DNA of 64,000 nt from Sphingomonas sp. GTDB taxonomy: Bacteria; Pseudomonadota; Alphaproteobacteria; Sphingomonadales; Sphingomonadaceae. The notes below the pieces were generated by a model. It saw only the letters and a list, made by a program, of their open reading frames with translations. It ran no database searches and had not been told where the DNA came from. Location: NCBI GenBank assembly GCA_017304655.1, contig JAFKLY010000009.1, positions 117,136 to 181,135 of the forward strand. The letters are read 5' to 3'. Shown in pieces: positions 4,664 through 39,731 of the stretch (position 1 is its first letter; each line of letters starts with the position of its first letter). The position numbers and the translations under genes are program-made.

Positions 4664-5602
4664 TCAGCCAAGCAGTCCGAAGGCCCAGAGCAGCACCGAT
4701 TTCTGAGCATGAAGGCGATTTTCCGCCTCGTCCCAGATGACCGACTGCGGCCCGTCGATGACCTCTGCGGTAACTTCTTCCTCGCGATGCGCCGGAAGGC
4801 AATGGAGGAACTTCGCCGTCGGCTTCGCCTGTGCCATCAGCGACGCCGTCACCTGATAGGGCATCATCGCCTTGAGCTTTTCCTCTCCGCCGGCCTGCCC
4901 CATGGAAATCCAGGTGTCGGTTACCACGACATCCGCGCCGGCCGCTGCCTGCGCCGCGTCGCGCATGAGCGTGATCGTCGCGCCGCGCGCACTGGCCTGC
5001 GCTCCGAAGCGTGGATCCGGCTCGTACCCTTCGGGCACGCCGACGCGCACGTCGAACTTGAAGAGCCCGGCGGCCTCGATGATCGAGTGCAGCACATTGT
5101 TGCCGTCGCCCAGCCAGGCCCACTGACTGCCCGGCAGGGCCACGCCATGCTCGATGACGGTCAGCAGATCGGCGACGATCTGGCAGGGATGCGAATCGTC
5201 GGTCAGGCCATTGATGACCGGCACGGTCGCGTGGCGCGCCATTTCCTCGATCTTGGCGTGATCGTCCGTGCGGATCATGATCGCGTCGACCATGCGCGAG
5301 AGCACCCGCGCGGTGTCGGCAATCGTCTCGCCACGACCCAGCTGGCTCGTGCTGCCGTCAAGAATGAGCGACGTACCTCCGAGCTGGCGGATCGCCATGT
5401 CGAACGAGACGCGCGTGCGGGTCGAGTTCTTCTCGAAGATCATGGCAAGCGTTCGCCCGGCCAGCGGCGCGTCCTTGTCCGCCGCGCCCCTGGGCAGGCC
5501 AGCCGCCAGGCGCGCCGCCTTGCGGTCGATCGCATCGGAAATCATCGCGGCGATCGCATCGCCACCAGCATCGGACAGATTGAGGAAATGCCTCGTCATC
5601 AT
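4664..5602 (-). CDS. argF: ornithine carbamoyltransferase
   Basis: STRTRVSFD carbamoyl-phosphate motif, SHPCQ and [10 protein letters not shown]. Confidence 0.93.
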
Positions 5603-28013: not shown

Positions 28014-29102
28014 ATGGCCAGCGCTCCCGTCGACCCCCCGGAAGGCTTCGCTCCTCCCAGACGCCCCATCGACGTGCTGATCGTCGACGACTCTGTCGTC
28101 GTGCGACGCATCATGGCCAAAGTGCTGGCGGCAGATAAGCGGTTTACCGTCACCGGCGCGGTCTCCAGCGGGGATCAAGCCATCGAATTCGTCCGCACCC
28201 AGCCTGTCGATCTGGTCCTGCTCGACATGCAGATGCCCGGCCTCGACGGGTTGCAGGTGCTGCCTCATCTGCTCGCATCGGAGCGCAGACCCCAGGTCGT
28301 CCTCCTCTCCGGCGCCTGTCGCGAAGGCAGCGAGATCGCGCTGCAGGCACTCGCCATCGGCGCCAGCGACGTCGTCGCCAAACCCAGCGCCGGCCATTTC
28401 AGTGACCAGTTCGTCGAGCATCTGCTCGATCGTCTGATTCATCTCGTCCCCGCCGCAGAGCGCAGCCGCACGCCCGAGCGCGTTGACCAGGCCAGCGCGC
28501 GACTGCGACCGGCCGGAACGCTGGTTCGCGCGGTCGGCATTGGCGGGTCGACCGGCGGCATCAGTGCCATGATCACGCTGATCACCGGCCTTGAACAGGT
28601 GACCGGCCTCCCGATTTTCATCACCCAGCATCTCCCCGCCAATTTCCAGGCGCTGTTCGCCGAGCAGCTCCGGCGTGCGACGCACCTGCCGGTCGCGATC
28701 GCCGAGGATGGCATGCCCGTGCGACCGGGCACTATCCACGTGGCGCCGGGCAGGGCCCATCTCTCGCTCGGCAAGACGGCGCGCGGGCAAGTCGTGATCC
28801 GCCTTTCCAACGAGCGCTGCCTGCATGGCAGCTTCCCGGCAGTCGACCCGATGTTCATGGCGCTCGCGCGTGTCTATGGGGCCGGCGCCTGTGGCGTCAT
28901 CCTCTCTGGCATGGGGCGCGACGGCCTGGCCGGGGCCCATGCCATCGTGGAAGCAGGGGGCTGGGTCATCGCGCAGGATCACGAGAGCAGCGCCGTCTGG
29001 GGCATGCCGGGGTCGGTCGCCAAGGCCGGCCTCGCCAGTGCCATCCTGCCGCCGGCGTCGATCGCCGGGCTGATCCTCGAGCAGAGGCGGGCTGTGGCAT
29101 GA
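28014..29102 (+). CDS. cheB: protein-glutamate methylesterase CheB
   Basis: REC VLIVDDS..VLLDMQMP plus methylesterase VGIGGSTGG and MGRDG. Confidence 0.9.
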   Translation: MASAPVDPPEGFAPPRRPIDVLIVDDSVVVRRIMAKVLAADKRFTVTGAVSSGDQAIEFVRTQPVDLVLLDMQMPGLDGLQVLPHLLASERRPQVVLLSGACREGSEIALQALAIGASDVVAKPSAGHFSDQFVEHLLDRLIHLVPAAERSRTPERVDQASARLRPAGTLVRAVGIGGSTGGISAMITLITGLEQVTGLPIFITQHLPANFQALFAEQLRRATHLPVAIAEDGMPVRPGTIHVAPGRAHLSLGKTARGQVVIRLSNERCLHGSFPAVDPMFMALARVYGAGACGVILSGMGRDGLAGAHAIVEAGGWVIAQDHESSAVWGMPGSVAKAGLASAILPPASIAGLILEQRRAVA

Positions 29103-29959
29103 TGATGGCGCCGCCTTCCCGCGCGATCCAGCGCCTGGGCGATCTGCTGGCGCACCACACCGGTCAGACCCTGTCCGAAAGTCGCCGCTGGCGTATCGAA
29201 ACATCGCTACGCCCCCTGATGCGCGAGCGGGGCCTCGTGTCGCTCGATGGCCTCGTCGCCGCAATCGAGCGCGATCCCGGCGGCACGCTGATGACCGAGA
29301 CGATCGACGCGATGCTGAATCACGAGAGCTCGTTCTACCGCGATTTTGCCGTGTTCAAGGCCATCGAGCAGACGGCACTTCCACGCCTGCAGGCGCAAGC
29401 CCGAGACAAGACGCTGCGCATCTGGTGCGCGGGCTGTTCGACGGGGCAGGAAGCCTATTCGCTGGCGATGATGCTCAAGCGCATGAAGCCGGCATGGGAT
29501 GGCTGGCGCGTCACCATCGTCGCGACGGACGTTTCCGAGCTCGCCATCGAAAAGGCCCGGCGCGGCCGTTATCCGCAGATGGACATGCAGCGCGGCCTCC
29601 AGATCAACGATCTGCTGCGCTGGTTCCGACCGGCCGGGGACGACTGGCAAATCGCCGACGAAATCCGGGACATGATCAGCTTCCAGACCGACAATATCCT
29701 TGAGCCGCGCAAGGTTTCGGGCGTGTTCGATCTGATCCTGTGCCGCAACATGCTCTTCTACTTTCCCGAGGACATGCGCCGGAAAGCCTGCGACACGCTG
29801 GCTCGTCACGCCCGGCCGGGTACCTATCTGGTGCTGGGCGCCGGCGAGATGCTGGCCGGCGGCAACAGCCCCTTCGCCAATTGCCGGGAATTGAGCTGCA
29901 TCTATGTGGCTGACAAACCGGCCACACTGCCGACCGTCATCGGCCGTCCGGCCCACTGA
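29099..29959 (+). CDS. cheR: chemotaxis protein methyltransferase CheR
   Basis: LRIWCAGCSTGQEAYSLAM, and FDLILCRNMLFYF. Confidence 0.9.
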   Translation: MMMAPPSRAIQRLGDLLAHHTGQTLSESRRWRIETSLRPLMRERGLVSLDGLVAAIERDPGGTLMTETIDAMLNHESSFYRDFAVFKAIEQTALPRLQAQARDKTLRIWCAGCSTGQEAYSLAMMLKRMKPAWDGWRVTIVATDVSELAIEKARRGRYPQMDMQRGLQINDLLRWFRPAGDDWQIADEIRDMISFQTDNILEPRKVSGVFDLILCRNMLFYFPEDMRRKACDTLARHARPGTYLVLGAGEMLAGGNSPFANCRELSCIYVADKPATLPTVIGRPAH

Positions 29960-30039
29960 CGACTCCGCTTCCGCCGCGCTCGCCGATCGGCTAGGGACGA
30001 TGGCGTCACCCGGCACCAGGAAGAGGCCACAGGCACAGC

Positions 30040-30723
30040 ATGATCGAGACGCCGTCACCCAATTTTGATGAGCGCTCGCTGCCGATCTCCGTTCTTGTGC
30101 TGCATTATACCGGCATGCCCGACGCGCCGAGCGCCATCAATTGGCTCGCCAATCCGGAAAGCAAGGTCTCCGCCCATTATGTCGTGACCGAGGATGGCAA
30201 TGTCGTCCGCATGGTCGAGGAAGAGAAGCGCGCATGGCACGCCGGGCGCTCCCGGTGGCGCGGTATCACCGATATCAATTCCGCGAGCATCGGCATCGAG
30301 ATCGTCAATCCCGGCCATGAATGGGGCTATCGCCCGTTCCCGGATGCGCAGATCGACGCGCTGATCCCGCTCGTCCACGACATCATCCAGCGCCGGCGCA
30401 TCACCCGCGGCAATGTGGTGGGACACAGCGACATTGCGCCTGCCCGCAAGCAGGATCCGGGCGAGCTGTTCCCGTGGCACAAGCTCGCCCGCCTGCGCCT
30501 GGCCCTGCCGCGCCCGACCAAGAACCTCATGGACCCGCACTGGACGGACAGCGGCTTCATGCTCGCGCTGGAGCGGTTCGGCTATGACATCAGCGACGCC
30601 CAGGCCGCCGTCGTCGCGTTCCAGCGGCGCTTCCGGCCCGAACTGATCGACGGCGTGATCGACGGTGAGTGCCGCGCCATCCTGCTCGCGCTGCTGCTGC
30701 CCCGCCCGCGCGGAGACGACTGA
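30040..30723 (+). CDS. N-acetylmuramoyl-L-alanine amidase (AmpD-like) with C-terminal peptidoglycan-binding-like domain
   Basis: LVLHYTGM, SAHYVV, AWHAG, SIGIEIVN and VGHSDIAPARKQDPG. Confidence 0.85.
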   Translation: MIETPSPNFDERSLPISVLVLHYTGMPDAPSAINWLANPESKVSAHYVVTEDGNVVRMVEEEKRAWHAGRSRWRGITDINSASIGIEIVNPGHEWGYRPFPDAQIDALIPLVHDIIQRRRITRGNVVGHSDIAPARKQDPGELFPWHKLARLRLALPRPTKNLMDPHWTDSGFMLALERFGYDISDAQAAVVAFQRRFRPELIDGVIDGECRAILLALLLPRPRGDD

Positions 30724-30815
30724 GCCGCGCCGAGCGATACGACATTTTCCCCCTGGCGGTTCGAGCGGTTTCCGCTTCTATCCGCTTGTCGGGATCAACA
30801 GGCGGGAGGCACGTG

Positions 30816-32231
30816 ATGCGGATCAGGAAGCACGCAGCGGTCGCGGCGGCAATCATCACCTTCGCGGGACAGGTTCAGGCGGCCGATGCGCCGCTCCGAC
30901 CGGATCAGGCGGCATTCCGCAGCCTCTACAAGGAGTTGGTGGAGACCGACACCAGCATCACCACCGGCAGTTGCACCGCACTGGCCGACAAGGTGGACGC
31001 CCATCTGCGCGAAGCCGGTTACACCGATGCGGACATCACCCGCTTCGCCGTGCCCGAGCACCCCAAGGAGGGCGGGCTCGTCGTCATCCTGCCCGGTACG
31101 TCGAAAACGCTGAAGCCCATCCTGCTGCTCGGCCATATCGACGTCGTGGTCGCCCGGCGCGAGGACTGGACCCGAGACCCCTATCAGCTCATCGAGGAAA
31201 ACGGCTATTTCTATGGCCGCGGCACGTCCGACATGAAGGCGATGGACGCCATCTGGATCGACATGATGATGCGCTTCAAGCGGGAGGGATACCGCCCGAA
31301 GCGCACGCTGAAGCTGGCACTCACCTGTGGCGAGGAAACCAGCACGGCGTTCAACGGTGCCCAATGGCTGGCGCAGAACAAGCGTGACCTGATCGACGCC
31401 GAATTCGCGCTGAACGAGGGCGGCGGCGGCCGGTCGGACGGGCGCGGCAATGCGGTCGAGATGCGCATCCATGTCGGCGAGAAGGCGGCCGTCAATTATC
31501 GCATCGAAGCGACCAATCCCGGCGGCCACAGCTCGGCGCCGGTGCGCGACAACGCGATCTACGAACTGGCCGACGCGCTGGCGAAAGTCCGTGACTATGA
31601 ATTCCCGCTGATGCTCAACGATACGACCCGCGCCTTCTTCGCCAAGGCTGGCGCGGGCCGGACGGACGCGATGGGCAAGGCGATGGTCGCGATCGTCGCG
31701 AACCCGGCCGACAAGGCCGCCGAAGCGACCCTCAATACCGACAAGAGCTATCACTCCATGTTGCGCACGACTTGCGTGGCGACGCTGCTGGATGGCGGTC
31801 ATGCCAACAACGCGCTGCCGCAGCGCGCCGGCGCGAACATCAATTGCCGCATTTTCCCTGGCATCTCGGCCGAGGCGGTGCGCCGCGCGCTGGAGCAGGC
31901 GATCGCCGACCCGCGCATGACGGTGAAGCTGAGCGACGACCGCGGCCCCCTCGCCAAGGCGCCGCCGCTCACGCCCGCCATCCTGAAACCCGCCGAGCAG
32001 ATGGTCGCGAAATATTATCCTGGCGTCCCGCTGATCCCCGTGATGTCGACCGGCGCGACGGACGGCATCTTCCTGCAAGCCGTCGGCATTCCCTCCTACG
32101 GCCCGCCGGGCCTCTATGGCGATGCGGACGGCAATGGCACGCACGGCCTCAACGAGCGCGCCATCGTCAAGTCCGTCTACACGGGCCGCGATCTGCTGAC
32201 CGACCTGGTGAAGCTCTACGCCTCACGCTAG
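30816..32231 (+). CDS. secreted M20-family metallopeptidase
   Basis: Signal peptide MRIRKHAAVAAAIITFAGQVQA, with LGHIDVV, GRGTSDMKA and CGEE. GGGAGG precedes the ATG at 30816. Confidence 0.85.
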   Translation: MRIRKHAAVAAAIITFAGQVQAADAPLRPDQAAFRSLYKELVETDTSITTGSCTALADKVDAHLREAGYTDADITRFAVPEHPKEGGLVVILPGTSKTLKPILLLGHIDVVVARREDWTRDPYQLIEENGYFYGRGTSDMKAMDAIWIDMMMRFKREGYRPKRTLKLALTCGEETSTAFNGAQWLAQNKRDLIDAEFALNEGGGGRSDGRGNAVEMRIHVGEKAAVNYRIEATNPGGHSSAPVRDNAIYELADALAKVRDYEFPLMLNDTTRAFFAKAGAGRTDAMGKAMVAIVANPADKAAEATLNTDKSYHSMLRTTCVATLLDGGHANNALPQRAGANINCRIFPGISAEAVRRALEQAIADPRMTVKLSDDRGPLAKAPPLTPAILKPAEQMVAKYYPGVPLIPVMSTGATDGIFLQAVGIPSYGPPGLYGDADGNGTHGLNERAIVKSVYTGRDLLTDLVKLYASR

Positions 32232-32402
32232 GCGGCGAGGACAAATTCGACTGGTGACGTTCGGTTTCAGGTCACATCCCGGCAGATCGGGACCGCTGGC
32301 TTGGGTTGGGCTCGGGCATGGGTAAAACCCGCCAGTGCAACGTCCCGCCCTCATCTCGGACATTCCCAAGCAATCTTGCGATGCCCGAAAGCCGAAATCT
32401 AT

Positions 32403-32858
32403 TCATGCAGCATTTGGACGAAACAGGAGCCGGTCGAGCGACCAGTCTCCGCCACCCCTAAAAACAAGCGGCAACAGTAACCCGGCCCAGCTCAGATGCG
32501 TGGCCCAAGCGTCTGGATAGACGAAGATCTCGATGACCGCGGTCATGCCGAGCAGGGCGAGGGCGGCCGGTCTTGTGAACAGGCCGAGCACCAGCAGGAT
32601 CGGGAAGAGATGTTCTGAATAGGTCGCGGCGTGGGCGGCGATCTCCGGCGGCACCAGCGGCAGCGCATATTCGGTGCGGAACAGCTCATAGGTGCCGTCG
32701 GTGATGTGGAGCAGGCCGTCCACCTTGGTGCGGCCGGACTGGAAGAAGACGGCCGCGATGCCGAGCCGCGCAACCAGCAGAAGCAGGGCGTCGGGCACGA
32801 GCGCGGTCAGGCGCTTAACGGCAAGAGCGCCGCGAGAAAGAAGCATGGTCATGGACAT
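32403..32858 (-). CDS. DoxX-family membrane protein (bufferin-locus accessory protein)
   Basis: Four hydrophobic helices and [18 protein letters not shown], typical of DoxX. It lies downstream of the DUF2282-type precursor. ATG at 32858 or 32852, after GAGGA. Confidence 0.8.
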
Positions 32859-32877
32859 ATCCTCGGACTGCCGGTCT

Positions 32878-32900
32878 GCCGGGAGGGCGTGCCTCCCGGC
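32878..32900 (-). promoter_or_regulatory. intercistronic GC-rich stem-loop between precursor gene and DoxX
   Basis: GCCGGGAGG (32878-32886) is perfectly complementary to CCTCCCGGC (32892-32900) around a 5-nt loop. There is no U-tract. Confidence 0.5.
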
Positions 32901-32908
32901 ATCGCGCA

Positions 32909-33184
32909 TCAGGCTTTCGGGGTCAGCGAGCCATTGCCCTTGGAGGTCTTGATGCTCGTGCAGGTGCCGGCCTTGACCAGCTTCCAGGCGTTGCCCTGAT
33001 AATTGACCTTGGACGTTCCCGCGCAGCTGGTGCCCGCGCCGGCCTTGCAGTCATTCTTGCCGGCGAGCGATACGCCATAGCATTTCTCCATCGGCGGCTT
33101 CTCCGCGGCCGGTGCGGAGGTTGCCGTGGCGGCGATAGCGAGCGCGAGCGTGGCGGCGAGGGTGGCATGGGTCTTGGTCATCAT
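32909..33184 (-). CDS. bufA: DUF2282-type 4-Cys secreted RiPP precursor (bufferin BufA1-like)
   Basis: Sec signal [26 protein letters not shown], then core [24 protein letters not shown]...GTCTS (C-x10-C-x7-C-x20-C). AAGGAG lies upstream. Confidence 0.85.
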
Positions 33185-33234
33185 CTGTCTCCTTGAATGG
33201 CTTGCCCGGGCCGATCGCCGGACATGCCGCGGAG

Positions 33235-33260
33235 TTCGCGAGGAAGAAGGCGACGGTTAC
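33235..33260 (-). promoter_or_regulatory. ECF (SigF-type) promoter for the DUF2282 precursor-DoxX operon
   Basis: The minus strand reads GTAACC (33260-33255), a 16-nt spacer and CGAA (33238-33235), about 50 nt upstream of the start codon. Confidence 0.65.
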
Positions 33261-33304
33261 GCCGGGCACCACGCAAATATTTTCGCACTGGCATCGCGCG
33301 GCGT

Positions 33305-33329
33305 GTAACCTTTCCAGCGCGGCGACGAA
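33305..33329 (+). promoter_or_regulatory. ECF (SigF-type) autoregulatory promoter for the sigma/anti-sigma operon
   Basis: GTAACC (33305-33310), a 15-nt spacer and CGAA (33326-33329), 22 nt upstream of the ATG at 33352. Confidence 0.6.
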
Positions 33330-33351
33330 TGCCCCTGTCACAGGAGCATGA

Positions 33352-33888
33352 ATGCGGGCGAACGAGGAGCAGTTGAGAGGCTGGATGGTAGGGGGACTGG
33401 ACGGCATCGCTGCCGACCATGCCTGCCTGCTGCGCGCGCTCGTGCCTATCCTGTCGGCTTTCTATGGCCGCCGCGTGTTCGCGTCGGACGATATCGAGGA
33501 TCTGGTGCAGGAGACGCTCATCGCCGTTCATACCCGCCGTGCGACCTATGACCGCGATCGGGCCTTCACGGCCTGGCTGTTCGCCATCGCGCGCTACAAG
33601 ATGATCGATCATTTCCGCCGCAGCCGCAGCACCGTGCCCATCGAGGAACTGGAAGCGATATTGATGGTCGAAGGCTTCGAGGCCAGCAGCGGCGCGCGGC
33701 TCGATGTCGAGGATCTGCTCGGCACCTTGCCCGACAAGCAGGCGCGGATGATCCGCGCGATGCATCTGGAGGGCGCCAGCGTCGCCGAGGCGGCCGCGGC
33801 GAGCGGCTATGGCGAATCCGATGTGAAAGTGTCGGTACATCGCGGCCTCAAGGCGCTGGCGGCCCGCATCCGGGGGAGCGGGTCATGA
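33352..33888 (+). CDS. sigF: ECF RNA polymerase sigma factor (SigF-like)
   Basis: Region 2 DLVQETLIAVHTRRATYDRDRAFTAWLFAIARYKMIDHFRR and region 4 QARMIRAMHLEGASVAEAAAASGYGESDVKVSVHRGLKAL. The stop overlaps the next gene. Confidence 0.85.
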   Translation: MRANEEQLRGWMVGGLDGIAADHACLLRALVPILSAFYGRRVFASDDIEDLVQETLIAVHTRRATYDRDRAFTAWLFAIARYKMIDHFRRSRSTVPIEELEAILMVEGFEASSGARLDVEDLLGTLPDKQARMIRAMHLEGASVAEAAAASGYGESDVKVSVHRGLKALAARIRGSGS

Positions 33889-34526
33889 ATACCGATCGCC
33901 TCATCGACAGACTCGCTAGCGATGTAAGGCCGGTGCGCCGGAGTGCTGTCAGTCGGCGCCTCGCGCTGGGAATAGTCATCGGCGCTCTCGTCTCTGCTGG
34001 CCTCGTGATCGCCACGCTCGGCGCGCGCCCCGATCTCATGCTCGCCATGCGCGGTTTCGGCTTCTGGATGAAGTGGTCCTACACGCTCTCGCTGTCTGCC
34101 ATCGCGATCTATGCCACGGCGCGGCTCGCGCGGCCCGATCCGGGGCGCCTTCGCGCGCTCTGGCTGATCGCCATTCCGGTGACATTGCTCGCCGGTGTCG
34201 GCGTCCTCGAGCTGATGCACACTCCACCGAGCGAATGGCTCGCCATGTGGCTGGGCCGCAGCTGGAGCAAGTGCCCTTGGCTGGTGTTCGGCCTTGCCAT
34301 GCCGATCTTCATCGGGCTGCTCTGGTCGTTCAGGCGCTTGGCGCCGACCCGTCTGCGCGCGGCCGGTGCAGCTGCAGGTCTGGCCGCGGGCGCCTTCGCA
34401 GCGACCGTCTATTGTCTGCATTGTCCGGAAGTCTCGGCGATCTTCGTGCTGACCTGGTACACCGCAGGCATTCTGCTCGCTGCCAGTCTCGGCGCTCTTG
34501 TCGGGCCGAGACTTTTGCGCTGGTGA
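33885..34526 (+). CDS. nrsF: NrsF-family (DUF1109) six-helix membrane anti-sigma factor
   Basis: N-terminus MNTDRLIDRLASDVRPVRR followed by six hydrophobic helices. ATGA-coupled to the sigma gene. Confidence 0.8.
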   Translation: MNTDRLIDRLASDVRPVRRSAVSRRLALGIVIGALVSAGLVIATLGARPDLMLAMRGFGFWMKWSYTLSLSAIAIYATARLARPDPGRLRALWLIAIPVTLLAGVGVLELMHTPPSEWLAMWLGRSWSKCPWLVFGLAMPIFIGLLWSFRRLAPTRLRAAGAAAGLAAGAFAATVYCLHCPEVSAIFVLTWYTAGILLAASLGALVGPRLLRW

Positions 34527-34527
34527 T

Positions 34528-34553
34528 GTAACCGGCTCGCGGGTCGCTCCGAA
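34528..34553 (+). promoter_or_regulatory. ECF (SigF-type) promoter for the 6-Cys precursor-MNIO-DUF2063 operon
   Basis: GTAACC (34528-34533), a 16-nt spacer and CGAA (34550-34553), 43 nt upstream of the ATG at 34596. It starts 2 nt after the nrsF stop codon. Confidence 0.65.
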
Positions 34554-34595
34554 CTAATGACGCCAACCCGGCACAACCATTTCGGAGTATCCCTC

Positions 34596-34859
34596 ATGAG
34601 CACTTTCCGCACGGGCGTCAGCTTCGCCGCATCCGCCGCCCTCGTCGCGATCAGCGCCGCCGCCGTTCCGACAGCCGCCGTCGCCAAGGGTGCCGCTAAG
34701 ATCCATTGCTACGGCATCAACACCTGCAAGGGCACGTCTGACTGCAAGACCGCCAAGAATGACTGCAAGGGCATGAACGACTGCAAGGGGCAGGGCTTCA
34801 AGGAGGTTTCGGCCAAGCAATGCTCGGCCGCTGGCGGCAGCCTGACCGAAACGAAGTAA
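34596..34859 (+). CDS. bufA: 6-Cys secreted RiPP precursor (bufferin BufA2 / BUF_6/12Cys-like)
   Basis: Signal MSTFRTGVSFAASAALVAISAAAVPTAAVA, then core KIHCYGINTCKGTSDCKTAKNDCKGMNDCKGQG..QC (C-x5-C-x5-C-x6-C-x5-C-x12-C). GGAG lies 8 nt upstream. Track start 34557 lies inside or just after the promoter. Confidence 0.8.
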   Translation: MSTFRTGVSFAASAALVAISAAAVPTAAVAKGAAKIHCYGINTCKGTSDCKTAKNDCKGMNDCKGQGFKEVSAKQCSAAGGSLTETK

Positions 34860-34866
34860 GCGCTCC

Positions 34867-34902
34867 GGCCCGGCGGTTCCCCCTGATCCCATCCGCCGGG
34901 CC
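34867..34902 (+). promoter_or_regulatory. intercistronic GC-rich stem-loop between precursor gene and MNIO gene
   Basis: GGCCCGGCGG (34867-34876) is perfectly complementary to CCGCCGGGCC (34893-34902) around a 16-nt loop. There is no U-tract. Confidence 0.5.
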
Positions 34903-34925
34903 ACCCTCTCGTCGCGAGACCTATC

Positions 34926-35756
34926 ATGATCCCATCCTTTGCCGGCTTCGGCCTTGGCCTGCGCAAGCAGCATTATCCAGACTTCCTGGAGCATCGCATC
35001 GGCGTGGATTTCGTCGAGGTCATCTCCGAGAATTTCATGATCGATGGCGGCCGGCCGAAACGCATCCTGCGCGAGGTGCGCGAGCGCTATCCGGTCGCGC
35101 TGCACGGCGTCTCGATGTCGGTCGGCTCGGCCGATGGCGTGGATCGCGCTTATCTCGCGCGGCTGCGGGCGCTGGTCGACGAGGTCGAACCGCTGTTCGT
35201 GTCCGATCACCTTTGCTGGACGCGGTTCGGCGGATTCAGCTCCCACGACCTGCTGCCGCTGCCCTATACGCAGGAGGCGCTGGACATCGTCTGCGCCAAT
35301 GTTGCGATCGCGCAGGATGCCCTGGGCCGGGCGATGCTGATCGAGAACCCGTCGAGCTACGTCGCTTTCGAGGATGACATGATGACCGAATGGGCCTTTC
35401 TGGACGCCGTCTGTGCCCGGACCAGCTGCGGACTGCTGCTCGACGTCAACAATGTCTTCGTCAGCGCCACCAATCATGGCTTCGATCCGATCGCCTATCT
35501 CGACGGCGTGCCGCATGATCGCGTCCGCCAGATCCATCTCGCCGGCCATTCGCAGCGCGACACGATGCTGATCGACACGCATGACAGCCCGGTCCCGGCC
35601 TCGGTCTGGGATCTTTATGCCCATGCCCTGCCGCGCCTCGGCCCGGTCGCGACGATGATCGAGCGCGACGATGCCATCCCGCCTCTGCACGAACTTCTCG
35701 CCGAACTGGATCAGGCGCGCGCGATCAATGCGCAGACGACGAGGCTGGCAGCATGA
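34926..35756 (+). CDS. bufB: DUF692 / MNIO (multinuclear non-heme iron oxidative) RiPP-modifying enzyme, BufB-like
   Basis: GFGLGLRKQHY, FVEVISENF, LHGVSMSVGS, VSDHLCW, LLPLPYT, LIENPSSYV, LLLDVNNVFVSATNHGFD, and IHLAGH. Confidence 0.9.
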   Translation: MIPSFAGFGLGLRKQHYPDFLEHRIGVDFVEVISENFMIDGGRPKRILREVRERYPVALHGVSMSVGSADGVDRAYLARLRALVDEVEPLFVSDHLCWTRFGGFSSHDLLPLPYTQEALDIVCANVAIAQDALGRAMLIENPSSYVAFEDDMMTEWAFLDAVCARTSCGLLLDVNNVFVSATNHGFDPIAYLDGVPHDRVRQIHLAGHSQRDTMLIDTHDSPVPASVWDLYAHALPRLGPVATMIERDDAIPPLHELLAELDQARAINAQTTRLAA

Positions 35757-36493
35757 GGCTCGCCGAGTTGCAGCGCGATTTTTGCGCTTGTCTGACGGCG
35801 GAAGGGCTGGCCTCGTTCGGCCCGTGGGCACGCACGGGCCTCGCCGTCTATCAGAACAACTACCGCGCGCAGCTTGCCGCTTGCCTGGAGGAAAGTTTCG
35901 AAAAGACCCGGCAATGGATCGGCAGCGAAGCTTTTCACGAAGCAGTGGTCACCCATGTGGAACGAATACCACCAAGCAACTGGACGCTCGACGCCTACCC
36001 ACGAGATTTCCCAGAGACGCTGGCGATGCTCTATCCGATCGATCCGGAGGTCGCCGAACTCGCAAGCCTTGAACTAGCGCTCGCCGAGGCGTTCGTCGGA
36101 CCGGATTCGGCGAAGCTGACCGCCGAGTTGATTGCGAACACGAACTGGGATCATGCGAGACTGATCTTCGCGCCAACCCTCGAAATCCTGACGCTGACGA
36201 CTAATACATTGGCCATCTGGACCGCTCTCGCGGAGGATAGCTTGCCGCCAATGAGCGCCTTGTTGCCGGCAGAAGGCGCGATGATCGTCTGGCGCGACGG
36301 CGAAGTTCCGCGTTTCCGTGCAATCGATGCCGCCGAACTTCGCGGGATCCTGACCATCAAATCCGGCACAACATTTGCCGATCTTTGCGCTGCGATGGTT
36401 GAGCATGCTGGGGAGGCGGAAGGCGTTACACAGGCTGGCGTCTGGCTTGGCGAATGGCTCAAGGACGGCATGCTCGTCGACATCATCGAATAA
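35753..36493 (+). CDS. bufC: DUF2063-type MNIO partner protein, BufC-like
   Basis: ATGA overlap with the MNIO gene. LAVYQNNYRAQLAACLEESFEKTRQWIGSEAFHEAVVTHVERIPP is typical of the DUF2063 N-terminal domain. Confidence 0.8.
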   Translation: MRLAELQRDFCACLTAEGLASFGPWARTGLAVYQNNYRAQLAACLEESFEKTRQWIGSEAFHEAVVTHVERIPPSNWTLDAYPRDFPETLAMLYPIDPEVAELASLELALAEAFVGPDSAKLTAELIANTNWDHARLIFAPTLEILTLTTNTLAIWTALAEDSLPPMSALLPAEGAMIVWRDGEVPRFRAIDAAELRGILTIKSGTTFADLCAAMVEHAGEAEGVTQAGVWLGEWLKDGMLVDIIE

Positions 36494-36502
36494 GGCTTGG
36501 CT

Positions 36503-36568
36503 GATTACGCCAACATAACCGACATTCGACCGCTCGAAACGCCTACCTAAAACCTGCCGTTCATTCAT
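36503..36568 (+). repeat. att-like bipartite direct repeat, copy A
   Basis: Block 1 is GCCAACATAACCGACATTCG (36509-36528). A 23-nt unrelated spacer follows, then block 2 ACCTGCCGTTCATTCAT (36552-36568). It matches copy B 18/20 and 16/17 with identical spacing. Confidence 0.7.
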
Positions 36569-36768
36569 CATGCTGTTGCGGCCTTGCGATCGACCAGCCT
36601 TGGACAAAGCGGGCATGAGCGACGGCTTGGGCGAATGGTCGCTTCATCCGGAAGCCGTCTTTTCATCCAAAGTTTAGCTTTGCCGTCTTGCGACGGGGGC
36701 TGCCAGGATGCGCCGGGGCCAACTGGAACACTGTGGCCATCGCCTTGGCCGGCCGCCCCGGCTGACCT

Positions 36769-37671
36769 TTAACGCCGTAGGCGACGAGCGATGTGCGTAG
36801 ACATGAAATCAACGAAGACGCGTACCTTCGGCAGTGGGTATTGGCTCGCGGGCCATAGAAGGTGAAGTGCCCCGGTTTCCTGCGCCGACCCCTCTAAGAG
36901 TTCGACGAGTCGCCCGTCATCGATGCTCGATCGCGCAGCAAAATCGGGCAAGTGCGCGATGCCCCGCCCCCGAATTGCCAGTTCAAGGAGCGGCTCCATT
37001 ATCGTCGCCGTTATGGTCGCGTTGGGTGACACTGCTTCGCCGTCAGAAATGACAGGCCAAGGTATGAGCCGCCCGGTTTCCGCAAGGCGCTGGCGCAGGC
37101 AGGCATGACTAGCCAAGTCCGACAGGGACTCTGGTCGTCCTGACCGCGCGATGTAATCAGGAGAAGCGACGAAGCTCCACCCGAACTCCCCCAGTTTTCG
37201 ATGTCGCAAGCGGCTGTCAGTCGGTTCGCCCGATCGAATTACCGCGTCGAAGCCCTCGTCTATGACGTCGACGAACCGGTCGTTGATATCGAGATCTAGC
37301 TGGATATCCGGGTAAGCTTCGTTGAACGCGGTGATCGCCGGCAGCAACAGTGTAGGCTCGACAGGAAGGCCGATCTTCAACTGGCCGTGCGGCGCAGCGC
37401 GGGCGTCGGAAACCTCCGCCTGGGCGGCTTCGATCTCGCTGAGGATACGACGGCACCGATCGAGGAACAGCGTCCCTTCCTCCGTGATCGCGATCGATCG
37501 GGTCGAGCGATGGAATAGCTGGACCGATAGCTGCTCTTCGAGCTTCTGGATCGCCTTGCCGATCGCGGAAGGCGTCAGCCCCATCGCTTGGCCCGCGAGC
37601 TTGAAGCTCCGTCTCTCAGCCGCCAGCACAAAGGCCTGGATGGCGGCAATACTCTCCACCTGAATACGCAT
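36769..37671 (-). CDS. LysR-family transcriptional regulator
   Basis: HTH FVLAAERRSFKLAGQAMGLTPSAIGKAIQKLEEQL plus a substrate-binding domain. Confidence 0.9.
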   Translation of the reverse strand: MRIQVESIAAIQAFVLAAERRSFKLAGQAMGLTPSAIGKAIQKLEEQLSVQLFHRSTRSIAITEEGTLFLDRCRRILSEIEAAQAEVSDARAAPHGQLKIGLPVEPTLLLPAITAFNEAYPDIQLDLDINDRFVDVIDEGFDAVIRSGEPTDSRLRHRKLGEFGWSFVASPDYIARSGRPESLSDLASHACLRQRLAETGRLIPWPVISDGEAVSPNATITATIMEPLLELAIRGRGIAHLPDFAARSSIDDGRLVELLEGSAQETGALHLLWPASQYPLPKVRVFVDFMSTHIARRLRR

Positions 37672-37682
37672 GGTAGAGATAT

Positions 37683-37701
37683 ATTCTTTATTGTCCGGAA
37701 T
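37683..37701. promoter_or_regulatory. candidate LysR-type (T-N11-A) binding site in the divergent promoter region
   Basis: ATTC-N11-GAAT inverted repeat (ATTCTTTATTGTCCGGAAT) lies 12 nt upstream of the LysR start and 66 nt upstream of the OYE start. Confidence 0.4.
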
Positions 37702-37766
37702 TATAGCCGTTTTTCATATCATGCGGTCGACCATAAATAGCCAGCGACACGAAACGCGAGGCTCGC

Positions 37767-38915
37767 ATGATGGACGCCCTTTTCAAACCATTCGACCTAT
37801 CTGGCTTGGAGCTGCCTAATCGCATCTTCATGGCCCCGTTGACCCGCTCGCGCGGCCCCGACGACGACGCCACGGATCTCGTTGCCCTCTAATATACGCA
37901 ACGCGCGACCGCTGGCCTGATCGTGTCGGAAGGCTCGCCGATCTCGCATGAAGGCCAAGGATATTTTTACAATCCCGGCATCTTCACCCCTGCACAAATT
38001 GCTGGATGGCGGCGGGTTACAGACTCGGTTCATGCGGTCGGCGGTCGCATGTTTATCCAACTCTGGCATGTCGGACGCATAGCCCACGCCTCGAACCAGC
38101 CTGAGGGCCGCGCCCCAGTCAGCTCGACCGATCGCGCAGCGGAAGGCGCGATGGCGTTTGGCCGCGCCGATGATGGTACAATCGGCTTTGTCCCAGCATC
38201 CCGCCCGCGCGCTCTCGATACCGAAGAAGTAGCGCGCGTCGTAGAAGACTTTGCGACTGCTGCACGCAACGCGATGTCTGCGGGCTTCGATGGTGTCGAA
38301 CTTCACGCGGCGAACGGCTACCTGTTCGACCAATTTCTGAATCCGCATATTAATGATCGGACTGACCGCTACTCGGCCGCGACGATCCAGAGGCGGATGC
38401 GCTTCACCCTTGAGGTCGTCGATGCCGTTAGTGCGGCGATCGGCCCGCATCGGGTGGGCATCCGCCTGACGCCTTACGGGGTCATCGGCTCGGTTCCGAT
38501 GTTCGATGACGCAGAGGAAACCTATGTCGCTCTAGGCAAGGCCCTAGGTGAACGTGGGATCGCCTACTTTCACGTCATGGATCAGACGGGGTTCTTCAAC
38601 ACCCCTGCCGGTCAGAAGCCAACAAGCGAACTTATCAAGGAACTGCTGATCAAGTGGCGCTCGGTCGCGCCGCATACGGCAATCCTGCTGGACGGTGGCA
38701 TGACGAAGGCGCGGGCGAACGAGCTTATCACCAATGGTGTCATCGACCTCGCCGGCTTCGGTCAGCCGTTCATCGCCAATCCCGATCTGGTCGCCCGTCT
38801 GCGCCACGACTGGCCGCTCAATCAGCCCGATCGCGCGACATACTATGAGGGCGGCGCTCATGGCTATGTCGATTACCCCCCGTACCGCCCCGCCGACGAG
38901 CCTGTTGCAGGCTGA
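37767..38915 (+). pseudogene. Old Yellow Enzyme-family NADH:flavin oxidoreductase interrupted by a single in-frame TAA
   Basis: ATG 37767 gives MMDALFKPFDLSGLELPNRIFMAPLTRSRGPDDDATDLVAL, then TAA (37890-37892). The same frame continues YTQRATAGLIVSEGSPIS... to 38915 (track ORF 37923..38915). The family consensus has Tyr at the stop position (ALYYxQRA). Confidence 0.75.
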
Positions 38916-38957
38916 CGCTAGCAACGCACCGCACCCCAAGCGAAGAAGGATAGATCC

Positions 38958-39731
38958 ATGCCCCAATATTCAGAACTGGGGGGCAAAGTTGCTCTCGTAA
39001 CCGGCGCCGGCTCCGGCATCGGCAGGTCGACCGCCATGGCGTTCGCAGGACAAGGCGCGCACGTCGTCGTCTCGGATATCAACCCCGATGCTGGCGAGGA
39101 AACTGTCAAGCTCATTCAGGAGGCTGGCGGCCAAGCGATCTTCGTCAAAACCGATGTAACCAAGGAAGGCGAGGTGCAGGCTGTGGTCGACCAGGCTGTC
39201 TCGACATTCGGGCGGCTCGATATCGCCTTCAACAACGCCGGCCTTACGCAAAACTCGGCCCCGCTCGCCGAGCAATCGTCCGACACTTACGACGAAATTT
39301 TCGACGTCTCCGTGCGCGGCGTGTGGCTTTCAATGCGCGCCGAAATCGCCCAGATGCTCAGGCAAGGGGGCGGCACGATCGTCAACATGGGGTCAATGTC
39401 GGCCGTCGTCGGCATTCCCGGTCTCACGACCTATTCAGGCTCCAAACATGCCGTCTTGGGCCTCACGCGGGGCGCTGCTCTGGACTATGCGAGGCAGGGC
39501 ATTCGCATCAACGCCGTCGGCCCGGGGACGATCGACACGCCTATGATCGACCGTTTCGTGGAGCTTGCGGGATCGGACAGCGTCATGGAGCCAATCCGCG
39601 CTGCGCATCCGATCGGCCGCACCGGCAAGCCCGAAGAAGTCGCCGAAGCGGTGCTGTGGCTGGCCTCCGACGCATCGAGCTTCGTCGTTGGCCAAATCCT
39701 CATGGTGGATGGCGGCTACTCGGTCCAGTAA
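38958..39731 (+). CDS. short-chain dehydrogenase/reductase (SDR)
   Basis: TGAGSGIGRS, NNAG and YSGSKHAV catalytic motif. Confidence 0.9.
   Translation: MPQYSELGGKVALVTGAGSGIGRSTAMAFAGQGAHVVVSDINPDAGEETVKLIQEAGGQAIFVKTDVTKEGEVQAVVDQAVSTFGRLDIAFNNAGLTQNSAPLAEQSSDTYDEIFDVSVRGVWLSMRAEIAQMLRQGGGTIVNMGSMSAVVGIPGLTTYSGSKHAVLGLTRGAALDYARQGIRINAVGPGTIDTPMIDRFVELAGSDSVMEPIRAAHPIGRTGKPEEVAEAVLWLASDASSFVVGQILMVDGGYSVQ

Follow-up and report, generated by a model that had tools for sequence, protein, structure and literature searches.

A probable SigF-controlled bufferin gene cluster of a sphingomonad in which two different precursors are apparently served by a single pair of modifying enzymes

Introduction

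Which enzymes mature a precursor peptide whose gene lies within a biosynthetic gene cluster and has no modifying enzymes of its own beside it? This question is raised by a block of genes (positions 32403-36493) in a 64,000-nt stretch of contig JAFKLY010000009.1 of Sphingomonas sp. (assembly GCA_017304655.1), here called the window, where two Cys-rich precursors of different families, a DUF2282 peptide and a BufA2-type peptide, are encoded together with one pair formed by an MNIO (DUF692) enzyme and a DUF2063 partner protein. Bufferins, or captophorins, are among the largest classes of peptides made by the ribosome and modified after translation (RiPPs), and have recently been recognized as a copper defence of bacteria. 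In Caulobacter, their central Cys residues undergo a four-electron oxidation to 5-thiooxazoles, the outer Cys residues form a disulfide, and the peptides are exported by the Sec pathway and chelate Cu(I)/Cu(II) in the periplasm (PMC11626156); thiooxazole formation, copper binding and copper protection are known from Caulobacter and heterologous work only. The block described here is very probably a SigF-controlled bufferin (captophorin) gene cluster, and it is unusual in that the same pair of modifying enzymes appears to serve both of its different precursors. The overall best explanation, to which we assign a probability of about 0.8, is a bufferin cluster on its own SigF/NrsF stress switch, the shared enzymes included; that one BufB2/BufC2-type pair matures both the 4-Cys DUF2282 and the 6-Cys BufA2 peptide is, taken by itself, a more tentative proposal, at best an even bet.

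One enzyme pair behind the BufA2-type gene

Hidden Markov model (HMM) scans of the whole block found seven open reading frames (ORFs), each matching its expected family (Table 1). A previous sequence-only reading of this DNA had proposed these families, and every assignment passed its HMM test, among them the DUF692/MNIO enzyme, the 6-Cys BufA2-type peptide, the 91-aa DUF2282-like peptide followed by a DoxX protein and the extracytoplasmic function (ECF) sigma factor with its NrsF-like anti-sigma, while the DUF2063 partner is backed by its fold as well. The ATGA coupling described there between the MNIO and DUF2063 genes was also seen, and sigF and nrsF overlap in the same manner. The DUF2282 gene has no MNIO or DUF2063 gene of its own downstream: doxX comes directly next, as it does 3' of the DUF2282 gene in 104 related loci. 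The sole enzyme pair of the window sits behind bufA2, downstream of nrsF, and the 64 kb contain no further gene for an MNIO, a DUF2063 protein or a precursor. The earlier description of the block as a complete module is thus appropriate for the BufA2 branch and not for the DUF2282 branch, for which no cognate BufB1/BufC1 is encoded here.

Among solved structures, the MNIO is closest to the DUF692 protein of PDB entry 3BWW (E = 5e-46); TglH and MbnB come next (E of about 1e-13 for the latter). In related loci, identity to the window enzyme amounts to 60-100% for MNIOs encoded right behind BufA2 genes (n = 98) and to 42-51% for those right behind DUF2282 genes (n = 31), and the two ranges do not overlap. 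The window MNIO carries the motif E246-R-D248-D249 (ERDD). An Asp at position 249 is found in 92 of the 98 BufA2-linked MNIOs, while this position is variable in the DUF2282-linked ones and is occupied by Phe in the EGKCG-type enzyme 3BWW (ERDF). In fact, the Asp at the equivalent of FonB-Phe250 and BufB2-Asp251 has been proposed as the determinant of ‘Cys-Lys’ captophorin MNIOs (Gadgil et al. 2026; PMC13097082), and Asp249 of the window enzyme agrees with this determinant. Because of the clade identities and Asp249, the enzyme pair is assigned to the BufB2/BufC2 type. The sequence of the DUF2063 protein gave no meaningful match in the PDB, and structure prediction followed by Foldseek was therefore used: the AlphaFold2 model (mean predicted local distance difference test score, pLDDT, of 88.9; built on 45 homologues) has as its best folds NGO1945 (3DEE; template modelling score, TM, of 0.71) and, next, the MNIO partner TglI (8HI7_A). 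The NCBIfam HvfC model scored this protein far under its cut-off, and the HvfB model also remained below cut-off.

Precursor peptides

The DUF2282 peptide contains Cys residues at positions 35, 46, 54 and 75 (C-x10-C-x7-C-x20-C), a spacing that is invariant among its relatives and identical to that of Cys12/23/31/52 of Caulobacter BufA1. The BufA2-type peptide has Cys residues at 38, 44, 50, 57, 63 and 76 (C-x5-C-x5-C-x6-C-x5-C-x12-C), again with invariant spacing (79 of 79 relatives), and its core carries four Cys-Lys sites. Both patterns are as first described, and so are the CYG(V/I) and (N/S)DCK motifs common to the two cores, which belong to a longer colinear similarity (CYG…DCK…C.G…[WF]K…C…GSLT). 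By eye, each peptide begins with a putative Sec-type signal made of a basic n-region, an Ala-rich h-region and an A-x-A site; for BufA2 the putative cleavage site is …PTAAVA↓KG, and the same kind of inspection finds the n-, h- and c-regions and the AVA↓K site to be conserved. Taking KGAAK…TETK as the BufA2 core and AEKPP…TPKA as the DUF2282 core, the calculated mass of the BufA2 core is about 5870.74 Da unmodified and about 5852.60 Da in the predicted mature form (-18.14), and that of the DUF2282 core about 6562.25 and 6552.18 Da, respectively (-10.08).

The mechanically called bufA2 ORF begins at 34557 and encodes 100 aa, a form that was rejected, its ATG lying only 3 nt past the -10 element. 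The start is placed instead at 34596, giving 87 aa as in the sequence-only reading, because the promoter ends at 34553 and the orthologues begin at the equivalent of 34596.

Comparison across related loci showed the DUF2282 core to be more strongly conserved than any other protein encoded there. DUF2282 peptides from hybrid loci, in which the gene has no MNIO behind it, and classical DUF2282 peptides follow one consensus that includes all four Cys residues and the surroundings of CysII and CysIII; as judged from its sequence, the orphan peptide is indistinguishable from the classical, modified BufA1. A single deviating gene was noted, in a metagenome-assembled genome (MAG) locus (L045:3869-4051), where an in-frame stop stands just past CysII (NDC*AG); the gene is intact in the near-identical locus L052 of Sphingobium cupriresistens, and the stop, the sole case in about 100 hybrid loci, reflects an error of sequencing or else marks a rare pseudogene.

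Distribution of the hybrid architecture

The locus was compared with 80 genomic loci and with the results of a metagenome scan using DUF2282 peptides. The closest genomes belong to the Sphingomonadales; MNIO identity is 84% for the best GTDB locus and 89% for the nearest orthologue with a name, which comes from Sphingobium xanthum. Complete genomes that carry the locus include those of Sphingomonas sp. MMS24-J13 (NZ_CP173258) and ASY06-1R (NZ_CP197464). The full arrangement doxX<-DUF2282, sigF->nrsF->bufA2->MNIO->DUF2063, in which the first two genes are divergent from the rest, is present, among the 80, in about 60 loci of sphingomonads and in two MAGs of Steroidobacteraceae, and three loci without sigF-nrsF still hold both divergent precursor units and their promoters. 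Another form, with all genes on one strand (DUF2282->doxX, about 1 kb, then bufA2->MNIO->DUF2063) and without SigF/NrsF or the promoter motif, occurs in the Pseudomonas fluorescens group, Dyella, Noviherbaspirillum and Undibacterium. In Alpha-, Beta- and Gammaproteobacteria alike, the DUF2282-DoxX unit thus keeps its linkage to the BufA2-MNIO-DUF2063 unit despite changes in gene order and regulators, and no second MNIO was found within 6 kb of any of these loci. The metagenome scan yielded three architectures: the hybrid, classical buf1 with divergent sigF-nrsF, and complete buf2 and buf1 clusters back to back (L088, L115, L119, L120 and L146). The last arrangement is also indicated for Asticcacaulis (GCF_000175215.2) by consecutive accession numbers in the supplementary table of a 2025 survey (PMC12452194), and the same table gives, for the complete genome of Piscirickettsia salmonis (GCF_000300295.4), a single MNIO/DUF2063 pair that adjoins its one Buf2 gene, and two DUF2282 genes besides. 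The rows of that table used here contain no hybrid-bearing sphingomonads, and the survey's text takes up neither arrangement.

In the sigma-less cluster of P. fluorescens CFBP13716 (CP185740; L068), a secreted alpha/beta-hydrolase-like gene of 253 aa lies between doxX and bufA2 (4782-5543), and a 973-aa regulator of the winged-helix/ATPase/TPR type is encoded divergently upstream. The regulation of that cluster must differ from the SigF/NrsF switch.

The SigF/NrsF switch

In Caulobacter, the sequence bound by sigma-F, GTAACC-N16-CGAA, was established experimentally (PMC3511200). Matches to GTAACC-N15/16-CGAA number exactly three in the window, against 0.08 expected, and all three transcription units have one ahead of them: the DUF2282 promoter is 44-50 nt upstream of its start codon, and the internal promoter begins 2 nt past the nrsF stop and 42 nt before the ATG of bufA2. 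This three-promoter pattern is found at homologous positions in most of the roughly 60 related sphingomonad loci. Residues C130, H179 and C180 of NrsF are invariant in 64 orthologues, and the two Cys residues correspond to C131 and C181 of Caulobacter NrsF, which are needed to keep SigF inactive (PMC3511200). The earlier proposal that the cluster is self-regulated has thus gained strong in silico support, and control by its own SigF/NrsF pair, of the ECF16-like kind, appears well founded on these conserved features. A sigma-70 promoter scan of the region gave zero matches, which fits control by the ECF factor alone but is uninformative.

The spacer of the sigF promoter is 15 nt long in the window and in L006, against 16 nt in the other two promoters and in nearly all orthologous loci; by analogy, the shorter spacer may reflect weaker autoregulation, as reported for sigF of Caulobacter. 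Sigma-F-type motifs also occur near other genes in some relatives. For example, in a Sphingomonas MAG (L008:2617-5667) a 3-kb insert between nrsF and bufA2 holds a DoxX-like protein, a glycosyltransferase and an MsrB-like gene together with two extra motifs (3329, minus strand; 5014, minus strand), and a similar gap is seen in L015. Another example is Novosphingobium hassiacum (L073:8285-10800), where, just downstream of the buf cluster, divergent GTAACC-N16-CGAA motifs (8826, minus strand; 8846, plus strand) stand ahead of secreted msrB-like and msrA-like genes, which are followed by a thioredoxin-like and a CcdA/DsbD-like gene. From these motifs, some sphingomonads appear to include periplasmic methionine-sulfoxide repair in the same SigF-type regulon.

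Maturation of the DUF2282 peptide and the inducing stress

A shared enzyme pair is favoured because the two units stay linked across three proteobacterial classes despite rearrangement, because the same promoter type co-regulates both, because the two cores are colinear in their similarity, and because P. salmonis, as far as the survey table shows, has DUF2282 genes but a single, Buf2-adjacent MNIO/DUF2063 pair. The DUF2282 peptide would then most likely be matured by the BufB2/BufC2-type pair at CysII and CysIII, which are modified in Caulobacter BufA1 (PMC11626156). The simplest history would begin with an ancestral supercluster that had buf1 and buf2 back to back and then lost bufB1C1; since complete loci of that kind exist, such a loss would readily give the hybrid. 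The fuller account, in which shared enzymes and bufB1C1 loss are joined to the view that the streamlined SigF-embedded hybrid is the standard form in Sphingomonadales and the sigma-less form that of Pseudomonas, Dyella and Oxalobacteraceae, is possible but put at somewhat less than even. Several points weigh against these proposals. The MNIOs linked to the two precursors form separate clades and their partner proteins are only 24-31% identical, which points to specific and not to promiscuous enzymes; in the DUF2282 peptide, Ala instead of Lys follows CysIII and, in many hybrid loci, CysII as well, and with no Lys behind CysIII a contact between Asp249 and Lys cannot explain DUF2282 recognition. 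In addition, a profile-profile comparison of the two cores with hhalign gave a weak match (probability 26%, E = 7e-4), which agrees with a reported identity of 36% between the two Caulobacter precursors (PMC3511200); this similarity suggests distant homology of both precursors and does not in itself establish shared recognition. Furthermore, the sequence covered for the source organism is the 64-kb window, and a distant bufB1C1 may lie outside it. The clean split of the MNIO clades by neighbouring precursor, the strong difference between partners and the frequency of genomes with two MNIO pairs, such as Pf-5 and Caulobacter, all speak for an alternative that we regard as rather unlikely, namely that the local pair matures BufA2 only and that the DUF2282 peptide is modified by BufB1/BufC1 encoded elsewhere. 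It would require, however, that bufB1C1 had moved away alone, repeatedly or anciently, with bufA1-doxX staying behind, and no orphan bufB1C1 was found among the 160 loci searched in all, whereas DUF2282-doxX is physically tied to BufA2-type enzyme genes in all three classes and, by the rows of the survey table, P. salmonis combines DUF2282 genes with one BufA2-adjacent MNIO in a complete genome. Alternatively, the hybrid-locus peptide might not be modified by any MNIO and act as a plain periplasmic Cys peptide in thiol/disulfide exchange, possibly with DoxX as oxidoreductase, as an independent second arm of the SigF response. That DUF2282 and doxX are transcribed as a unit by themselves from a separate promoter, that DoxX homologues are tied to thiol and oxidative stress, and that orphan precursors have been allowed to be ones that ‘are not modified’ (Leprevost et al.; PMC12452194) agree with this idea; it is nonetheless the most improbable of those considered, for a loss of modification should have relaxed or shifted the constraints on the peptide, yet the orphans hold the exact classical BufA1 consensus, including the residues around both Cys modified in Caulobacter, and in the sampled long loci the DUF2282-doxX unit is never away from an MNIO pair.

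With the shared-enzyme reading, the following mechanism can be proposed, for which we infer the chemistry, the inducer, the copper function and the role of the hairpins. NrsF would sense periplasmic stress (copper, other thiol-reactive metals or oxidants) through Cys130, His179 and Cys180 and release SigF, which would then fire the three promoters, those of sigF-nrsF, of bufA2-MNIO-DUF2063 and of the divergent DUF2282-doxX unit. In the cytoplasm, the MNIO iron enzyme and its DUF2063 partner, a RiPP recognition element (RRE)-type protein, would oxidize the four central Cys residues of BufA2 to 5-thiooxazoles, with the outer two joined in a disulfide, and GC-rich hairpins behind each precursor gene would probably keep precursor mRNA above that of the enzymes and DoxX. 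The DUF2282 peptide, its own BufB1/BufC1 genes lost, would be matured at CysII/CysIII by the shared pair. After export, the Sec signal peptide would be cleaved to leave a Cu-chelating peptide in the periplasm. The stress in question may be another one, and an oxidative, hypochlorite or chlorite signal, or a different metal (Cr, Cd, Au), instead of copper buffering specifically, is unlikely though it carries real weight: SigF of Caulobacter responds to chromate and cadmium (PMC3511200), genes for periplasmic MsrA/MsrB, thioredoxin-like and CcdA-like proteins are under the same motif in related sphingomonad loci, and DUF692/DUF2063 mutants of three other bacteria are sensitive to chlorite, a phenotype of chlorite rather than of copper. 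On the other hand, in the sole direct tests Cu induced bufferin reporters but Fe, Zn and Mn did not, and bufferins bound Cu and protected against it (PMC11626156). The chlorite phenotypes count against the proposed mechanism, and so do the dispensability of DoxX in Caulobacter (PMC11626156), the weak autoregulation of its sigF (PMC3511200), the score of the window anti-sigma with the NCBIfam NrsF equivalog (162, below the cut-off of 300) and that of DoxX with the HvfX-family model (51 bits, under the threshold of 80).

Relation to known systems

The cluster combines features of the two bufferin loci of Caulobacter vibrioides. It resembles buf1 (bufA1B1C1D1, CCNA_03363-03366) in the 4-Cys DUF2282 precursor with identical Cys spacing, in DoxX, in the divergence of sigF-nrsF from the DUF2282 gene, in the GTAACC-N16-CGAA promoter and in the NrsF Cys pair. 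Unlike buf1, it has no bufB1/bufC1 between precursor and doxX, and its MNIO and DUF2063 genes, downstream of nrsF and behind a BufA2 gene, belong to the other MNIO clade. With buf2 (bufA2B2C2, CCNA_02999-03001) it has in common the order of 6-Cys precursor (here with a putative Sec signal), MNIO and DUF2063, the SigF-type promoter, the BufA2 HMM match above cut-off and the Asp at the Cys-Lys specificity site; buf2 of Caulobacter is, however, a separate locus far from sigF, whereas sigF-nrsF lies directly upstream here, and the span from CysI to CysVI is 38 residues in the window peptide against 26 in Caulobacter. The back-to-back superclusters of Asticcacaulis and of the five metagenome-scan loci named above have divergent DUF2282 and BufA2 units of the same families, but hold a second MNIO after DUF2282 (44-51% identical to the window enzyme), while the window has the BufA2-linked MNIO only. 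Further likeness is found to the oxazolin, fontiphorin and gonophorin clusters (HvfABC, FonABC, NgoABC), which comprise an MNIO with a DUF2063 partner and a Cys-rich precursor, often with DoxX and an ECF sigma factor; Sec export of the precursor and 5-thiooxazole chemistry are features of those systems, to which the window is likened from its genes alone. Their precursors are EGKCG-repeat ‘Lys-Cys’ captophorins, and their MNIOs have Phe (ERDF, as in 3BWW) instead of the ERDD of the window enzyme. Finally, as in methanobactin synthesis (MbnABC), an enzyme of the MNIO superfamily would act on Cys residues of a ribosomal peptide to give a copper ligand, although there the partner MbnC is not a DUF2063 protein, a leader peptide replaces the Sec signal, the product is an oxazolone-thioamide and the function is copper acquisition instead of sequestration.

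The sequence-only reading had singled out the locus as a candidate for a poorly described system. This description does not hold, since bufferins were characterized in 2024-2026 (PMC11626156, PMC12452194, PMC13097082), NCBIfam provides equivalog models, and NCBI and UniRef already name the orthologues ‘MNIO family bufferin maturase’ and ‘HvfC/BufC’. The locus brings no new chemistry or family. The mixed Buf1 and Buf2 architecture with a single enzyme pair, embedded with SigF, and its wide conservation are nevertheless not described in the bufferin literature examined: the 2025 survey reports sigma/NrsF genes in Buf1 but not Buf2 clusters, and notes tandem and orphan precursors without describing a mixed cluster (PMC12452194). 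The published generalization that sigma/anti-sigma genes accompany Buf1 clusters only would need correcting. With two co-regulated precursor families and one enzyme pair visibly encoded, the locus is a clean natural test of substrate choice by MNIO/RRE enzymes. If one pair does handle both, nature would here offer a case in which thiooxazole-forming MNIOs tolerate substrates of different families, and efforts to engineer thiooxazoles into unrelated scaffolds could start from it. The three promoters and the conserved hairpins after the precursor genes also make it a compact model for the setting of precursor and enzyme levels in a stress-induced RiPP operon.

Hairpins, gene layout and flanking genes

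Perfect stems of 8 bp or more follow bufA2 in 84% of 79 loci (1.4% of shuffled controls) and the DUF2282 gene in 47% of 76 related loci (2.6% of shuffles). The bufA2 stems comprise 62 different arm sequences, so that structure and not sequence is conserved. The hairpin between bufA2 and the MNIO gene is likely an attenuator or partial terminator, or else an mRNA stabilizer, that would set the precursor-to-enzyme ratio as such elements do in other RiPP operons. An Rfam scan of 32000-37000 found no RNA family.

Table 1. Features of the bufferin cluster in the window, with strand and supporting match
Feature	Position	Strand	Match or remark
doxX (bufD-like), membrane protein	32403-32909 as ORF, 32403-32858 preferred	-	PF07681, 68 bits; second gene of DUF2282-doxX unit
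Hairpin between DUF2282 stop codon and doxX ribosome-binding site	32877-32901	-	perfect 10-bp GC-rich stem, 5-nt loop
bufA1-like DUF2282 precursor, 91 aa	32909-33184	-	PF10048, 84 bits
Sigma-F-type promoter of DUF2282-doxX unit	33235-33260	-	GTAACC-N16-CGAA
Sigma-F-type promoter of sigF-nrsF, divergent from DUF2282 promoter	33305-33329	+	GTAACC-N15-CGAA
ECF sigma factor, SigF-like	33352-33888	+	Sigma70_r2 and r4_2; NF009191, 172 bits, cut-off 171
NrsF (DUF1109), polytopic membrane anti-sigma	33885-34526	+	PF06532, 252 bits
Internal sigma-F-type promoter of bufA2-MNIO-DUF2063	34528-34553	+	GTAACC-N16-CGAA
bufA2-type precursor, 87 aa	34596-34859	+	NF050166 BufA2, 104 bits, cut-off 60
Hairpin between precursor gene and MNIO gene	34867-34902	+	perfect 10-bp GC stem, 16-nt loop
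MNIO (DUF692) bufferin maturase	34926-35756	+	NF050167 MNIO_BufB, 382 bits, cut-off 310; PF05114, 370 bits
DUF2063/RRE-type partner (BufC/HvfC, PME-type 1)	35753-36493	+	PF09836, 63 bits

The start of doxX is ambiguous, with ATG codons at 32852, 32858 and 32909; it is probably one of the first two, which lie past the hairpin and a GAGGA Shine-Dalgarno sequence, rather than 32909. The genes on both sides of the cluster (29099-32231 and 36769-39731) encode a CheR-like methyltransferase, an AmpD-like amidase, a secreted M20 peptidase, a LysR regulator, a flavin oxidoreductase of the old yellow enzyme (OYE) type and a short-chain dehydrogenase/reductase (SDR), and look unrelated to it. The M20 peptidase and LysR genes were considered as cluster members and rejected, as they are not kept beside the cluster in its relatives, and the boundaries first proposed for the block are therefore right.

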